Positions 3,411 to 15,122 of a stretch of DNA of 18,606 bases are shown here, in pieces. Source of the DNA: a virus; UHGV virus genome UHGV-0096816; one strand, 5' to 3'. The position numbers and the translations under genes are program-made. The notes beneath the pieces are model-generated. The model was not told the origin of the DNA, searched no databases, and worked only from the letters and a program-made list of their open reading frames with translations. Position 1 is the stretch's first letter, and every line of letters begins with the position of its first letter.

Positions 3411-4538
3411 TTACAATGCTACTTTGCTCCAACCTTTCCCTCGGTCATCATGGTAACGATCGGTTTGCTGCTGGGTTTTATGGCCCAGTAACTTTCTGGT
3501 ATCAATCCCTTGTTCTTTGTAAAGACGCTCAGATAAAGATCTTTGTTCATGAAAAGTTGCTGGAGTTCCAGTACCCCAATCAATTTCTGCCAGATCACGT
3601 GCCTTGCTAAAGTTCATCGTTAGTGTATTAGCTTTTACCTGTGCGCCACGTTCAGCCTGTGATGTAGTACGGAAAAAATGCACTAAGTATGGGCTGACTG
3701 CGTAGTCACGGCAGCGAGCTACTACATCACGTAAACACCAGTTGATAGCATTCAAACGTAAAGAAAGAGGGATAGCGATTTTGCTCCCGGTCTTTTCCTG
3801 AATGACGTGAAGATGATCCTCCCAAATATCACTAAATTTCATTTTGGATATATCTCCTAAACGCTGCCCAGTGACCAAAGCTAGGAGCATGGCATTTCCC
3901 ATATAACGATGAGCGGCGTCTGCGATATCGAATATTTTTTTCCATTCTTCTAGGCTGAGGCGTTGACGGCTAATTTTCCTTCTGGGTTGCTTCGTTGCAA
4001 GAGCAGGGTTATACCCTGGTGGAACTTCGCCGTAATGCTGTGCTTCCTTAAACACATCGATCAATACAGACCTTACGACCTGGGCCATTCTAGGCTGTCC
4101 AGCAGAGATATACTCATCAAGTAATTGTGCTATATCTCTGACATCAACGGCTGATATCAACTTCAGTCCTGCTCGTTCCCTGAGCAAGGATACTGGTTTG
4201 GCTTTCTGTTTATAGGTGTTGAGCTTTATATCGCCACTTTTCAGTCTGTCTTCCTGGATTGCTTGATAGCGATCTAACCAGGTTGACGTTGTGATTGCTT
4301 TTCCTTTGCTGGTTGCGATCCTGTCACTGATAGCCAGAATCTGCCGGGTTCTTTGCTCAGCCAGGCGTGAATTTGCCTCAGTGGCAATAGCAATGGCTTC
4401 AGCTTCGTTTGTGCCTAAAGAATGAAACTTCCCGGTCACTGGATGTTTATATCGCCAATAGACTTTATTTACTTTTCTACTATAAAGCGGATACAAGTTC
4501 GGGACTGAAACATTATTTTTACGTGGTCTGGCTGCCAT
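3411..4538 (-). CDS. int: phage tyrosine integrase (lambda Int family)
   Basis: 375-aa ORF. N-terminus (PNLY..., TGK.. LG) and C-terminus LLGHKTQQQTDRYHDDRGKGWSKV parallel lambda Int (LLGHKSDTMASQYRDDRGREW), including the catalytic-Tyr region. 5' end overlaps the xis 3' end as in lambda. Confidence 0.9.
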   Translation of the reverse strand: MAARPRKNNVSVPNLYPLYSRKVNKVYWRYKHPVTGKFHSLGTNEAEAIAIATEANSRLAEQRTRQILAISDRIATSKGKAITTSTWLDRYQAIQEDRLKSGDIKLNTYKQKAKPVSLLRERAGLKLISAVDVRDIAQLLDEYISAGQPRMAQVVRSVLIDVFKEAQHYGEVPPGYNPALATKQPRRKISRQRLSLEEWKKIFDIADAAHRYMGNAMLLALVTGQRLGDISKMKFSDIWEDHLHVIQEKTGSKIAIPLSLRLNAINWCLRDVVARCRDYAVSPYLVHFFRTTSQAERGAQVKANTLTMNFSKARDLAEIDWGTGTPATFHEQRSLSERLYKEQGIDTRKLLGHKTQQQTDRYHDDRGKGWSKVAL

Positions 4539-7205: not shown

Positions 7206-7640
7206 ATGTCCGGTAATATCTATACGCTGTACAAATCCCACTGTGAAAATGTTGGAAAGTATCGGGGCATTGAAATCAGTGGGGTAGTGTCATCAGTCGA
7301 AATAAGCAAAGTTGAATCAAGGGCAACATTACTTACTCTTCTGGACCTTGTCTTACATGAGCACCGGAAGAAATTCGGCACTCCCTATAATCAGTTGAAT
7401 GGGAAAAAGGCTCTGGTTCACCTTATTCTGATGAAGCATCACTGGATGCCAAAACAGATTAATGAGATGAAATTTGATGAACTTCTTCTTTCAATTCAGG
7501 ATGAACTCACACTTGATAAAATAAGCGTAACCGCCCAGAAATTTTTAGATTATCGAGACTGGAGATCACAAATTCATCACTTTGATGATTTTGACGAAAA
7601 TGAATGGGATCCTAATTTGTCTGCACAATATCTAAAGTAA
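7206..7640 (+). CDS. hypothetical protein (144 aa), opposite-strand moron-like gene inside the early-left region
   Basis: ORF with AAAGGAAAAGAA RBS-like stretch before the ATG; opposite in orientation to the surrounding leftward operon; AT-rich. No recognisable motif. Confidence 0.5.
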   Translation: MSGNIYTLYKSHCENVGKYRGIEISGVVSSVEISKVESRATLLTLLDLVLHEHRKKFGTPYNQLNGKKALVHLILMKHHWMPKQINEMKFDELLLSIQDELTLDKISVTAQKFLDYRDWRSQIHHFDDFDENEWDPNLSAQYLK

Positions 7641-8157: not shown

Positions 8158-8850
8158 TTAATTATGTCTCTTAAGGGTTTGCGACTGACTGATTAAGACC
8201 TTTCCAAAGACCATGAATCGGTGTTCGTTTTCGCTAGTAATTCCCCATTCACGGTAAATCTGGTTATCAGAAATCACCAGCAGTTTGTCAGGAATCATTT
8301 GAAGTCTTTTAACGTATATTTTGTCATCAAAACCAAAGACATATATACCATCACCATCAAACTGATTGATGCTGACATCAACGAAGATGAGATCTCCTGG
8401 CTCAATGGTTGGACACATACTGTCCCCACGAACGTTGATAACTTTGATGTGATTGGCTGGTCGTCCGCCGAACATTGATACAGCATTATCAGTTCTGTAT
8501 TCGATGGCATGAATCACATCAATGACATCACCGCCCTGGATAAGGCCATTTCCCGCACTGGCACTGATATCCAGCATTTCAATACGGAACACATCCTTCA
8601 CCTGCGCAACATCCTCATTATTACTGTTTTTATATACAGTATTACTTTTGTGGGCAGAGGTAAAGAGATCAGCAATATCAACACCTAAGCTCTTGGCAAT
8701 ATTACTCAGTGTTTGTTCGGTAAATTGTTTTTGCTTACCCGTTTCTAAGCGCGAGATGTTCGCCGCATCTACTCCTATCGCTTCAGCGAGATCGGCGATT
8801 TTCATGTTCTTCGCTTGGCGAAGTTGTCTGACTCGGTTTCCTATGTTCAT
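8158..8850 (-). CDS. CI-like prophage repressor (HTH_XRE + S24/LexA-type peptidase domain)
   Basis: N-terminal HTH (LRQAKNMKIADLAEAIGVDAANISRLETGK); C-terminal S24 motifs (VRGDSMCPTIEPGDLIFVD ... YVKRL). Divergent from the cro-like gene. Confidence 0.85.
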   Translation of the reverse strand: MNIGNRVRQLRQAKNMKIADLAEAIGVDAANISRLETGKQKQFTEQTLSNIAKSLGVDIADLFTSAHKSNTVYKNSNNEDVAQVKDVFRIEMLDISASAGNGLIQGGDVIDVIHAIEYRTDNAVSMFGGRPANHIKVINVRGDSMCPTIEPGDLIFVDVSINQFDGDGIYVFGFDDKIYVKRLQMIPDKLLVISDNQIYREWGITSENEHRFMVFGKVLISQSQTLKRHN

Positions 8851-10096: not shown

Positions 10097-11038
10097 ATGA
10101 GCACTAAATTAACCGGCTATGTATGGGATGGTTGCGCTGCGTCAGGCATGAAGTTATCCAGCGTGGCAATTATGGCCCGCCTGGCTGATTTCAGTAATGA
10201 CGAAGGTGTGTGCTGGCCATCAATTGAAACCATTGCCCGCCAGATTGGCGCGGGGATGAGCACCGTCAGAACGGCTATCGCACGGCTGGAAGCAGAAGGC
10301 TGGTTAACGCGTAAGGCGCGTCGCCAGGGTAACCGCAATGCGTCGAATGTTTATCAGCTTAACGTTGCGAAGCTTCAGGCAGCGGCATTTTCTCAACTGT
10401 CAGATTCTGACCCGTCAAAATCTGACGCATCAAAATCTGACCCGTCAAAATTTGATGCGTCGAAATCTGGCAAAAAAGCGGGTTTTCACCCGTCAGAATC
10501 TGGCGGGGATCCGTCAGTAAAATCAAAACATGATCCGTCAGATAAAAAACCTTCTCGTCCGGACGCTTCGCAACCGGACACGCAGACGGATGAACAGGAT
10601 TTTTTAACTCGCCATCCTGATGCGGTTGTATTCAGCCCTAAAAAGCGCCAGTGGGGAACGCAGGATGATTTGACCTGCGCACAGTGGTTCTGGAAAAAAA
10701 TCATCGCCCTGTACGAGCAGGCTGCCGAATGTGACGGCGAGGTGGTTCGTCCCAAAGAACCGAACTGGACAGCCTGGGCAAACGAAATTCGCCTGATGTG
10801 TGTGCAGGATGGTCGTACTCACAAACAAATCTGCGAGATGTACAGCCGCGTCAGCCGCGATCCGTTCTGGTGCCGTAACGTGCTCAGCCCGTCGAAGCTG
10901 CGGGAAAAATGGGATGAGCTTTCCCTGCGCTTATCACCGTCCGTCAGCACGTACACCGAAAAACGCGAAGACCCGTACTTCAAATCCAGTTACGACAACG
11001 TGGACTACAGCCAGATCCCGGCAGGATTCAGGGGGTGA
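10097..11038 (+). CDS. replication initiator (lambda O-like organiser with N-terminal winged-helix domain)
   Basis: N-terminal region GVCWPSIETIARQIGAGMSTVRTAIARLEAEGWL is typical of phage replication-initiator HTH domains. A repetitive acidic Ser/Asp/Lys linker is encoded by iteron-like DNA repeats. GAGG RBS before the ATG. Confidence 0.65.
   Translation: MSTKLTGYVWDGCAASGMKLSSVAIMARLADFSNDEGVCWPSIETIARQIGAGMSTVRTAIARLEAEGWLTRKARRQGNRNASNVYQLNVAKLQAAAFSQLSDSDPSKSDASKSDPSKFDASKSGKKAGFHPSESGGDPSVKSKHDPSDKKPSRPDASQPDTQTDEQDFLTRHPDAVVFSPKKRQWGTQDDLTCAQWFWKKIIALYEQAAECDGEVVRPKEPNWTAWANEIRLMCVQDGRTHKQICEMYSRVSRDPFWCRNVLSPSKLREKWDELSLRLSPSVSTYTEKREDPYFKSSYDNVDYSQIPAGFRG
10398..10545. repeat. iteron-like direct repeats (about 8 copies of a CGTCAAAATCTGAC-like unit) inside the O-like gene; putative origin of replication
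   Basis: Degenerate repeats of gtcagattctgac / cgtcaaaatctgac / catcaaaatctgac / cgtcaaaatttgatg / cgtcgaaatctgg / cgtcagaatctgg / ccgtcagtaaaatc / ccgtcagataaaaaac, as for ori-lambda within O. Confidence 0.55.
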
Positions 11039-11040
11039 TC

Positions 11041-11529
11041 ATGAGTCTTTTGAATGAAGTTCAGAAATTCATTGAAGCCCATCCGGGATGTACTTCCGGA
11101 GACATTGCGGATGCTTTTGCAGGTTACTCACGGCAGCGCGTTCTGCAGTCAGCAAGCAAGTTACGTCAGAGTGGGCGTGTGGCTCACCGTTGTGAAGGAG
11201 ATACACGCAGACATTTCCCGCGCCTGACTGAGAGAGCGCAGGAACCGGAACCACAACCAGTTCGAGAAACCAGACCTGTGCGCAATTTCTATGTCGGCAC
11301 TAACGATCCACGGGTGATTTTGTGCCTGACCCGCCAGGCTGAAGAACTGGAGTCCAGGGGCTTATACCGTCGTGCTGCAACCGTGTGGATGGCGGCATTC
11401 CGTGAAAGCCACTCCCAGCCAGAACGAAACAATTTTCTGGCGCGTCGTGAGCAGTGTTTACGGAAAAGCAGCAAGCGCGCTGTATCGGGTGATGAGTGGT
11501 ATCTGTCAGGGAATTACGTGGGGGCTTAA
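11041..11529 (+). CDS. hypothetical protein (163 aa)
   Basis: ATG preceded by AGGGGG RBS, 2 nt after the O-like stop. No motif recognised with confidence. Confidence 0.5.
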   Translation: MSLLNEVQKFIEAHPGCTSGDIADAFAGYSRQRVLQSASKLRQSGRVAHRCEGDTRRHFPRLTERAQEPEPQPVRETRPVRNFYVGTNDPRVILCLTRQAEELESRGLYRRAATVWMAAFRESHSQPERNNFLARREQCLRKSSKRAVSGDEWYLSGNYVGA

Positions 11530-12182
11530 TGAGTAATAAATATTACCAGGAGCTGGTGGAACTGCGGAACAAACCAGCCCATGAACTGAAGGAAGTGGGT
11601 GATCAGTGGCGCACGCCGGACAACATTTTCTGGGGAATTAACACCCTGTTTGGCCCGTTTGTTCTGGATCTGTTCACTGACGGTGATAACGCCAAATGTG
11701 CTGCGTATTACACGGCGGAAGACAACGCGCTGGCGCATGACTGGTCAGAACGTCTTGCGGAGCTTAAAGGGGCTGCCTTTGGTAATCCCCCATACAGCCG
11801 CGCCAGTCAGCATGAGGGGCAATACATCACCGGCATGCGTTACATCATGAAACATGCCAGTGCCATGCGTGATAAGGGTGGGCGCTATGTTTTCCTGATC
11901 AAAGCTGCCACCAGCGAAGTGTGGTGGCCGGAAGATGCGGACCATATTGCTTTTATTCGCGGGCGTATTGGTTTTGAACTGCCTGCCTGGTTTATCCCGA
12001 AGGATGAGAAGCAGGTGCCGACAGGCGCTTTCTTCGCTGGTGCTATTGCTGTTTTCGACAAGACCTGGAAGGGACCGGCAATCAGCTACATCGGGCGCGA
12101 TGAACTTGAGGCATGTGGTGAGGCGTTTCTGGTGCAGGTTCGCCAGCAGGCGGAAAAACTGGTCAGGGAGATGGCGGCATGA
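11529..12182 (+). CDS. phage Dam-type N6-adenine DNA methyltransferase
   Basis: Motif IV FGNPPYS (NPPY); size and layout typical of small phage orphan adenine methyltransferases. Start at MSNKYYQ overlapping the upstream stop (TAATG). Confidence 0.7.
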   Translation: MSNKYYQELVELRNKPAHELKEVGDQWRTPDNIFWGINTLFGPFVLDLFTDGDNAKCAAYYTAEDNALAHDWSERLAELKGAAFGNPPYSRASQHEGQYITGMRYIMKHASAMRDKGGRYVFLIKAATSEVWWPEDADHIAFIRGRIGFELPAWFIPKDEKQVPTGAFFAGAIAVFDKTWKGPAISYIGRDELEACGEAFLVQVRQQAEKLVREMAA

Positions 12183-12505
12183 CGACGTTAACTCAATGCC
12201 AGCAGCAGGTGCTGGATATGCTGATTTCTTACCAGAAAGAGCGTGGCTTTCCGCCAACCAATCAGGAGGTGGCAACCATGCTGGGATACCGTTCAGTGAA
12301 TGCAGCGGTAGAGCATCTTCGTGCACTGGAGAAAAAAGGCGTCATCACGATAAAGCGTGGCGTGGCCCGGGGGATAACGCTTCATACCGCGGTGAAGGAC
12401 GACGACAGCGAGGCGGTCGGGATTATCCGCGCACTGCTTGCCGGTGAGGAAAACGCCAGGCTGCGTGCAGCCCACTGGTTACATGAGAGGGGCCTGAAAG
12501 TATGA
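12179..12505 (+). CDS. LexA N-terminal-domain-like DNA-binding protein (no peptidase domain)
   Basis: LTQCQQQVLDMLISYQKERGFPPTNQEVATMLGYRSVNAAVEHLRALEKKGVITIKRGVARGITL aligns closely, by recall, with the E. coli LexA N-terminus ([65 protein letters not shown]). Confidence 0.7.
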   Translation: MTTLTQCQQQVLDMLISYQKERGFPPTNQEVATMLGYRSVNAAVEHLRALEKKGVITIKRGVARGITLHTAVKDDDSEAVGIIRALLAGEENARLRAAHWLHERGLKV

Positions 12506-12891
12506 AGCTGATCCTGCCTTTCCCGCCCAGCGTGAACACGTACTGGCGACACCCCAACAAAGGGGCGTTTGCTGGTAAGAGCCTGATAAGCGCGGCGGGG
12601 CGAAAATTCCAGAGCGCGGCGTGTGCAGCAATAGTTGAGCAGTTACGTCGTCTGCCGAAACCAACGTCGGCACCTGCTTCAGTGGAGATCGTGTTGTTTC
12701 CTCCGGATAAGCGGATCCGCGATCTGGACAACTATAACAAGGCGCTGTTTGACGCCCTGACCCACGCGGGTGTGTGGGAAGACGACAGACAGGTGAAAAG
12801 AATGCTGGTGGAGTGGGGACCGGTTATCCCGAAAGGGAAGGTCGAGATCACTATCAGTAAGTATGAGAAACCGGCGGGTGCAGCCGCCTGA
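12502..12891 (+). CDS. rusA: RusA-family Holliday junction resolvase
   Basis: N-terminal LPFPPSVNTYWRH and catalytic-region RDLDNYNKALFDALT motifs match RusA; 129 aa. Confidence 0.8.
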   Translation: MKLILPFPPSVNTYWRHPNKGAFAGKSLISAAGRKFQSAACAAIVEQLRRLPKPTSAPASVEIVLFPPDKRIRDLDNYNKALFDALTHAGVWEDDRQVKRMLVEWGPVIPKGKVEITISKYEKPAGAAA

Positions 12892-14717: not shown

Positions 14718-14735
14718 TTTTTTCGGAGAAAGTTG

Positions 14736-15122
14736 ATGCGTAATATACAGATGATCCTTGAACGTTGGGGGGCATGGGCAGCGAGTGATAGCTCAGGAGT
14801 TGACTATTCGTCTATAGCTGCTGGGTTTAAGGGGCTTCTTCCATATACCAGAAAGACACGTCTAGCTTGTTCAGATAGTGATGCATTAATTATTGAAGGT
14901 AGCCTTGCTCTTCTTAAGAAGAGAAAACCGTACGAACATTCTTTGATTGTGGCTCATTACCTGTATGGCATCTCGAAAAGAAAGATCGCAAAGGCACGTA
15001 ATAAAGACGAAAAATTGATACGTATCGAGATACAGGTTGCTGAAGGTTTTATCGATGGCTGCCTAAGTATGCTGGATGTGAAACTTGAAATGGATGACTA
15101 CTCTGAGTCTCCTGTAGCATGA
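14736..15122 (+). CDS. late-gene antiterminator Q (phage-82/QuuD-like family)
   Basis: MRNIQMILERWGAWAA ... SSIAAGFKGLLP resembles the N-terminus of enterobacterial Q antiterminators as recalled. GGAGAAAG RBS; located upstream of the lysis genes. Confidence 0.65.
   Translation: MRNIQMILERWGAWAASDSSGVDYSSIAAGFKGLLPYTRKTRLACSDSDALIIEGSLALLKKRKPYEHSLIVAHYLYGISKRKIAKARNKDEKLIRIEIQVAEGFIDGCLSMLDVKLEMDDYSESPVA

Follow-up and report, generated by a model that had tools for sequence, protein, structure and literature searches.

We examined a gene for a 108-residue LexA-like protein in the virus genome UHGV-0096816, a stretch of 18,606 nucleotides that was analysed at its full length and is referred to here as the window. 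By its gene order and its Pfam and PHROG matches, the window is an SfII-like lambdoid prophage. The gene occupies positions 12179–12505 of the + strand, stop codon included, and is defined by the list of open reading frames, by matches to Pfam PF01726 and PHROG 362, and by the ratio of nonsynonymous to synonymous polymorphism (pN/pS). Its frame runs from an ATG to a TGA, and a Shine-Dalgarno-like AGGGAG, read directly from the sequence, lies 7 nt upstream of the ATG (12166–12171, +). Directly upstream is dam, which encodes a phage Dam methyltransferase (11496–12182, +; Pfam PF05869, E = 1.1e-45), and directly downstream is rusA (12502–12891, +; Pfam PF05866). Both junctions overlap in the sequence: the ATG of the LexA-like gene shares 4 nt (ATGA) with the stop of dam, and the start of rusA shares 4 nt (ATGA) with the stop of the LexA-like gene.

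Domain architecture and cleavage features

The N-terminal part of the protein (residues 1–70; 12179–12388, +) is a LexA-type winged helix-turn-helix, as judged by Pfam, by sequence matching to the Protein Data Bank (PDB), and by an AlphaFold2 model and its structural matches. Residues 1–65 cover the whole of the Pfam LexA_DNA_bind model (PF01726) with E = 2.9e-19 and 69 bits (cut-off 23.7), and the best PDB-sequence match by phmmer is the DNA-binding domain of E. coli LexA (1lea; E = 6.5e-16, residues 2–70 on 2–70), with an identity of ~50% to LexA residues 2–70. This match is far beyond chance. The AlphaFold2 model was built from 16 family sequences and has a mean predicted local distance difference test score (pLDDT) of 84. 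In it, the winged helix-turn-helix consists of helices at residues 6–22, 28–35, and 40–52 and strands at 56–58 and 66–68, and Foldseek places this domain on the LexA–DNA complexes 3jso and 3jsp with a root-mean-square deviation of 0.9 Å over 67–69 columns at ~50% identity. The original prediction, which was made from the letters of the window, had proposed a LexA DNA-binding domain over the first ~70 residues; the profile and 1lea matches bear this out, and the predicted structure returns the LexA winged helix-turn-helix and not a different fold.

Residues 71–74 (AVKD; 12389–12400, +) form an acidic flexible linker that runs on into DD. The model has low confidence here, with a pLDDT below 50 over residues 71–75, and the indels among homologues fall in this region. 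In place of the S24 domain, residues 75–103 (12401–12487, +) are modelled as a two-helix hairpin that coincides with a conserved motif, with confident helices at 75–88 and 93–103 (block pLDDT ~90). A Pfam search found no match to Peptidase_S24 (PF00717) in the protein even at E ≤ 1, and the chain stops at residue 108, in agreement with the proposed lack of a peptidase domain. The NCBIfam LexA equivalog TIGR00498 aligns only over profile positions 1–91 of 203 and scores 70.5 bits, under its cut-off of 110.95. Because the hairpin is conserved, has two hydrophobic faces when read from the sequence, and replaces the dimerisation domain of LexA, it is probably a dimerisation or self-association module. 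A PADLOC search gave no meaningful defence-system match for the LexA-like protein.

The base-contacting residues of LexA are Ser39, Asn41, Ala42, Glu44, and Glu45 (PMC3091678; PMC13416735; both secondary sources). Four of the five (S39, N41, A42, and E45) are kept in the phage protein, whose recognition helix SVNAAVEHLRALEK comprises residues 39–52 (within 12179–12388, +), while position 44 is occupied by Val. The wing residues R64-G65-I66 are also kept. Relative to LexA, the recognition helix is conserved at least as well as the rest of the domain, and in an alignment of the short family, S39 never varies and N41 hardly does. As read from the sequence, the recognition surface is largely, although not completely, LexA-like. 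When compared to E. coli LexA as a whole (1LEA, 1JHH, 3JSO; TIGR00498), the phage protein is without the S24 Ser119/Lys156 domain, the conserved Ala-Gly site, and the LexA-type dimer interface, and it carries instead a 30-residue helical hairpin at its C-terminus. The genetic setting differs as well, with the phage gene lying in an early operon, whereas lexA is chromosomal and self-repressed.

Cleavage of LexA as stimulated by activated RecA (RecA*) acts on its C-terminal domain, in which a Ser-Lys dyad cuts the A84–G85 bond and residues 75–202 suffice (PMC9926225). Because both the Ser-Lys domain and a conserved Ala-Gly site are absent, the phage protein cannot be inactivated in the LexA way, and the proposal that it is not cleavable after RecA activation stands. 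We considered whether the segment 'LLAGE' (residues 86–90), which aligns with VAAGE of LexA, is a retained Ala-Gly cleavage site, but rejected this candidate since close homologues have AK, AN, or VG at the site and the segment is predicted to be helical. The same alignment with the cleavage-site region of LexA could be taken to favour a protein-level decoy, which would contact host LexA, RecA*, or ClpXP instead of binding DNA. We regard such a decoy as very improbable, as Gly89 is variable in the manner just described, the region is predicted to be helical rather than strand-loop as in LexA, the LexA C-terminal domain (75–202) that is needed for RecA* engagement is missing (PMC9926225), and the strongest purifying selection falls on the DNA-binding domain.

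For the mechanism that we propose below, the nearest functional analogues are the N-terminal fragment of LexA and the LexA(Ind-) alleles, in both of which LexA-type DNA binding cannot be removed by RecA*. In the non-cleavable Ind- alleles (lexA3, for example), the C-terminal domain is still complete. The fragment produced by LexA cleavage is a transient degradation intermediate, whereas the phage protein has a gene of its own and a different C-terminal module. Its chain ends in ...GLKV, in contrast to the ...VAA that self-cleavage leaves on the N-terminal fragment of LexA. Neher and colleagues are said to have reported in 2003 that an exposed ...VAA end forms part of the recognition signal for ClpX; since ...GLKV differs from this end, clearance of the phage protein by ClpXP is not expected. 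The free N-terminal domain of LexA retains operator binding, although 10–1000-fold weaker, and its removal by Clp is needed for full SOS induction (PMC11442139). Because the free domain still binds operators, a stable, self-associating LexA head would be expected to behave as a super-repressor.

Operon position, distribution, and selection

In the window, the integrase gene (3411–4538) and cI, which encodes an S24-type CI repressor (8158–8850), lie on the − strand. After cI come cro, a cII-like gene, a replication protein gene, a PerC-family gene, dam, and the LexA-like gene, which is followed by rusA, a KilA-N protein gene, a DUF968/HNH gene, Q (14733–15122), and the lysis genes. A scan of the window revealed no convincing + strand promoter or terminator between cro and the LexA-like gene; the simplest view is that the latter is a delayed-early member of the pR operon. 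Given the unbroken same-strand string of genes from cro to Q and the translational coupling to dam and rusA, the protein would therefore be made only after infection or induction.

The position just 5' of rusA is common to the window, SfII, Stx2a_1447, PhiR29_1, mEp460, and 569R4. Four distant homologues on contigs likewise lie in a lambdoid early-right region, directly or almost directly 5' of rusA, with DUF968 and an antiterminator following, and the adjacency to rusA is kept in homologues down to 42% identity. This persistent adjacency, often with overlapping stop and start codons among homologues of 42–100% identity, could point to a DNA-binding accessory of the recombination/replication module, which would, for example, target or modulate RusA or Dam and would not be a transcription factor. 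Several observations make this role improbable. In two loci (L012 and L010), other genes intervene between the LexA-like gene and rusA. In three near-identical prophages from IMG/VR with an identical cI allele (L030, L038, and L070), the LexA-like gene is missing and dam directly abuts rusA. Moreover, a LexA-type winged helix-turn-helix is a sequence-specific operator reader, and the model displays no surface resembling one that binds junctions. The LexA-like gene is a dispensable and removable cassette.

Two further features of the neighbourhood can be described here. The gene two positions upstream of the LexA-like gene in the same operon (11035–11529, +) encodes a YfdN-like homologue of PerC-family activators (Pfam PerC, E = 1e-9; PHROG 1324). 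PerC-type prophage proteins are known to activate virulence loci of pathogenic E. coli. The LexA-like gene of some E. coli genomes (H27, H29, H31, and H32) comes after the PerC gene, with no dam. Adjoining the integrase gene, the window also contains a two-gene Septu-like defence module (35–1582 and 1579–2418, +), consisting of a PtuA-type AAA ATPase (PADLOC PDC-M01A/PtuA, E ~1e-210) and an HNH nuclease (PDC-M01B, E ~1e-106). A similar AAA_15/AAA_21 gene likewise flanks the integrase gene in the Cronobacter locus L012.

The LexA-like protein aligns along its entire length with PHROG 362, annotated as "transcriptional repressor" (E = 1.6e-59; residues 1–108 on profile positions 1–106 of 106). 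The gene is 99.4% identical to SfII_44 of Shigella phage SfII, which is annotated as "LexA DNA binding domain protein"; together with the lambdoid gene neighbourhood, this identity confirms that the gene is phage-encoded. Copies with 95–100% nucleotide identity are found in 50 phage records, some of them from Stx2a and Stx2c converting phages and from mEp460, and in 2233 of 5426 complete E. coli genomes (41%), in which RefSeq labels them "LexA family transcriptional regulator" or "LexA family protein". The family described here is the one known as PHROG 362, as pham 237 (PMC8136144), and, in the RefSeq records of SfII, SfV, mEp460, and Stx2a/Stx2c phages, as "LexA family transcriptional regulator"; these labels derive from the Pfam domain. 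The novelty implied by the original prediction thus does not hold, as the gene is already labelled "LexA family transcriptional regulator" in thousands of genomes. In full-text searches of the literature, we found no functional study of the enterobacterial family and only an annotation-level mention in a comparative study of Stx phages, which merely lists the protein as a pham with pfam01726 (PMC8136144).

Relatives were collected by a word-indexed search combined with an exhaustive HMMER search. Those of full length have 104–135 residues, extend down to ~40% identity, and come from Escherichia/Shigella, Citrobacter, Salmonella, Cronobacter, Kosakonia, Enterobacter, Cedecea, and Klebsiella. 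Down to 40% identity, the family has in common the C-terminal motif EAxxxIRALLAGxxxARxxAxxWLxxxG. When genome contigs were scanned with the single protein, only Shigella flexneri and probable host lexA genes were returned. Among 46 distinct alleles from the collected loci, pN/pS is 0.11 overall, with 0.026 in residues 1–70 versus 0.30 in residues 71–108, and the gene is under strong purifying selection.

These values bear on whether the gene could be without function, left over from the decay of a full-length repressor gene of the LexA or CI type. In favour of such a remnant are the shortness of the protein when compared to LexA, the fusions or frameshifts seen in some database copies (P0001, P0023, P0030, and others), and the internal stop in one of 26 distinct proteins. 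The low pN/pS, particularly in the DNA-binding domain, nevertheless excludes a decaying fragment. Both the length and the conserved C-terminal motif, which is not of the S24 type, hold steady from genus to genus, synteny and translational coupling are likewise preserved, and the gene is present in the large share of complete E. coli genomes given above. The selection and conservation data effectively refute the remnant explanation, to which we attach almost no probability.

The family is also not isolated among viruses. Among the structure matches are many other short viral proteins that share the fold and belong to uncultured Caudovirales, Mycobacterium phage Wildcat, and Tectiviridae, and the LexA-like protein matches several further PHROGs (24920, 3502, and 29443). 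Because many short viral proteins share the fold and several PHROGs match, a protein consisting of a LexA head only is an established kind of phage protein. A number of collected sequences (P0133, P0148, P0151, P0152, P0154, and others) have two LexA_DNA_bind stretches in a single chain of 140–350 residues and can be described as tandem "single-chain dimers".

SOS-type operators in carrier phages

A search of the window for SOS-box-like sites, which had been suggested together with the original prediction, identified one consensus-armed box, TACTGTTTTTATATACAGTA, within cI (8622–8641, no strand assigned). This box may serve host LexA as an operator, and possibly the LexA-like protein too. It is the single exact TACTGT-N8-ACAGTA site in the window, where 0.0015 are expected from base composition and 6 of 3000 shuffles gave one. 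The box is located in the linker between the helix-turn-helix and S24 domains, at codons ~70–76 of cI. Its arms are without a change in SfII, Stx2a_1447, mEp460, and a 68.5%-identical cI allele (L007), while the spacer varies between alleles, and the encoded residues with it (YK, CK, FI). Between the window and L007, the box is identical at 18 of 20 positions, compared to 5–8 of 20 in the adjacent 20-nt blocks, which also contain indels. As this amounts to an island of DNA-level conservation across diverged cI alleles, the box is very probably functional. In an IMG/VR variant (L083), one arm of the box is mutated to TGCTGT. Among the possible effects of LexA binding inside cI are a roadblock, an internal promoter, or a C-terminal fragment of CI. 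A promoter scan around the box found no consensus promoter, and TTTACC-17-TACTGT on the minus strand, read by hand, is weak and is not claimed.

SOS-type sites recur in the carrier phages. Eight diverse loci, 121 kb in total, contain 11 copies of CTGT-N8-ACAG where ~1.8 would be expected, whereas every other CTGT/ACAG spacing from 0 to 14 occurs only 0–3 times. A palindrome scan over 7 diverse loci (exact 5+5 arms, spacers 0–12) likewise yielded ACTGT-N8-ACAGT as the sole 5+5 palindrome that recurs at non-homologous positions. The scan is able to detect operators, as it picked up the immunity operators of another cI type. With exact 5-nt arms in these 7 loci, it revealed no alternative conserved palindromic operator besides the SOS box, immunity operators, and palindromes at homologous coding positions. 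Within dam, there is also a 22-nt hairpin-forming palindrome, GCCACCAGCGAAGTGTGGTGGC (11907–11928), whose homologous position is kept in L002, L004, L007, and L012; its conservation may simply be coding conservation.

Outside of cI, a DNA methylase gene that follows Q contains a good SOS box, TACTGTAAAAATAAACAGTG (TACTGTAAAAATATCCAGTT in L003), 8 nt past its annotated start. The box is found at 11597–11616 in both L002 and L005, at 11987–12006 in L006, and at 12072–12091 in L003, and its carriers are Stx2c and Stx2a phages, mEp460, and 569R4. In Stx2a_1447, the box-bearing methylase gene is just upstream of tRNA genes and stx2A. An Enterobacter/Cedecea-type prophage on a contig of Enterobacter sp. 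Ap-916 (L010) has a promoter-like TTGCAA-17-AATAAT immediately followed by the SOS box ACCTGTACATTCATACAGTA (7531–7579), 440 bp upstream of its LexA-like gene and after a minus-strand moron (an RNase_A_bac/CdiI_2-like pair). A second SOS box, TACTGTTTTTATATACAGTG, is found at 12164–12183 of the same locus. The arrangement suggests that the LexA-like gene in the L010 lineage may be under SOS control or may be autoregulated.

The SOS box and the LexA-like gene do not always occur together. Of the IMG/VR loci that share the cI allele of the window, 59 come with enough flanking sequence, and 52 of these have the LexA-like gene; of the other 7, which keep the cI box, 3 have dam abutting rusA and 4 have larger deletions located between the replication gene and rusA. 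An obligate pairing of the cI box with the gene was rejected on account of these 7 loci. Conversely, four carriers of the gene (L004, L008, L009, and L012) are without a good SOS box in 14–16 kb. Box and gene are thus not obligately linked, and because some phages keep the cI box without the gene, host LexA is probably its main ligand.

Proposed role and implications

Our best-supported reading, which we put forward tentatively, is that the protein is a RecA-insensitive LexA surrogate that would be expressed from pR and occupy SOS-type operators. It builds on the domains of the protein, its missing cleavage machinery, the place of the gene in the operon, the purifying selection, and the SOS boxes, which are present and conserved in these phages. 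Dimerisation through the hairpin, the operator that is recognised, a repressing rather than an activating effect, and the choice of targets are inferred. According to this reading, the protein would be a small delayed-early lambdoid DNA-binding regulator composed of a LexA-type winged helix-turn-helix, a flexible linker, and a self-associating hairpin. It would be made only upon infection or prophage induction, i.e., once host LexA has been cleaved, and would be neither sensitive to RecA* nor cleared by ClpXP. As a non-cleavable LexA surrogate, it would bind operators of the CTGT-N8-ACAG type and re-impose repression on LexA-controlled promoters during lytic growth. The targets may be boxes borne by the phage, such as the one in cI, host SOS genes, or both. 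Occupation of SOS boxes by the phage protein, which was the core of the original prediction, can be described as plausible.

Several points weigh against this reading. SOS boxes of this kind are bound by host LexA, of which prophages are known to make use. In LexA, it is mainly the C-terminal dimer that determines operator spacing, and the phage protein has another module in its place. Across the short family, position 44 is never Glu (it is V, A, T, F, or L), and position 45 is also altered in a few distant members. The co-occurrence of cI box and gene is confounded by physical linkage, as the two are 3.5 kb apart, and, as described above, 7 of the 59 loci keep the box without the gene, and four carriers are without a good box.

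There is, in addition, a characterised analogue that behaves differently. The gp6 protein of GIL01 (Betatectivirus; UniProt Q5ILC6) is a truncated LexA homologue with 44% identity to the LexA DNA-binding domain of its host, yet its operator is the palindrome GaCACAnnTGTGaC and not the SOS box of the host, and it acts as an activator, at the late promoter P3 (PMC6182141). Since gp6 differs in both respects, such a level of identity guarantees neither the operator nor the regulatory sign. Compared by description, gp6 belongs to a tectivirus of Gram-positive bacteria, whereas the enterobacterial family has its own C-terminal hairpin and a lambdoid nin-like region; short LexA-domain proteins of Tectiviridae are among the structural matches of the phage protein.

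By analogy with gp6, the LexA-derived winged helix-turn-helix may have drifted to a private phage operator, where it would serve as an activator or a repressor and leave host SOS boxes unaffected. We consider this the main rival of the surrogate, possible but rather unlikely. The gp6 precedent (PMC6182141), the change of E44 to other, hydrophobic residues throughout the family, and the occurrence of short LexA_DNA_bind-only proteins in unrelated phages (including PHROGs 24920, 3502, and 29443) all favour such an operator, and the new C-terminal module could set a different half-site spacing. On the other hand, no palindrome other than the SOS box and immunity operators recurs across carriers in the scan with exact 5-nt arms, and, relative to LexA, the recognition helix is no less conserved than the rest of the domain. 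Nor does the window contain sites for the gp6-type operator GACACAnnTGTGTC beyond chance: we observe one match with 2 mismatches, in a coding region, where 0.70 are expected.

A more specific version of the RecA-proof surrogate would combine a commitment lock with SOS shut-off, the protein refilling the operators left by cleaved LexA. In this scheme, CI would fall, pR would fire, and the protein would then sit on the cI box and block cI transcription. Its other targets would be host SOS promoters and LexA-controlled genes of co-resident prophages, such that induction would become irreversible and competing SOS-induced functions would be silenced. We hold this combination to be unlikely, more so than drift to a private operator.

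The family is already annotated everywhere, and a characterised analogue exists. Because the gene's existence and domain content are in public annotation, value lies only in its function, and interest comes from the prevalence of the family (41% of complete E. coli genomes, including Stx2 phages) together with the ease with which the hypothesis can be tested. If the protein reads a private operator, it would be one more small phage regulator, with interest limited to lambdoid gene regulation. If it does bind SOS operators, induced lambdoid prophages would re-silence the very DNA-damage response that triggered them, and the carriers include Stx2-converting and Shigella serotype-converting phages. 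The consequences might then reach SOS mutagenesis, cross-induction of prophages, the expression of colicins and toxins, and Shiga-toxin output under antibiotics. The protein would also represent a compact LexA variant, natural in origin and not cleavable, that would be of relevance to attempts at suppressing SOS-driven evolution of resistance. Finally, if the commitment lock is correct, ~40% of E. coli genomes, Stx2a and Stx2c prophages included, would carry a phage-encoded off-switch for the SOS response.

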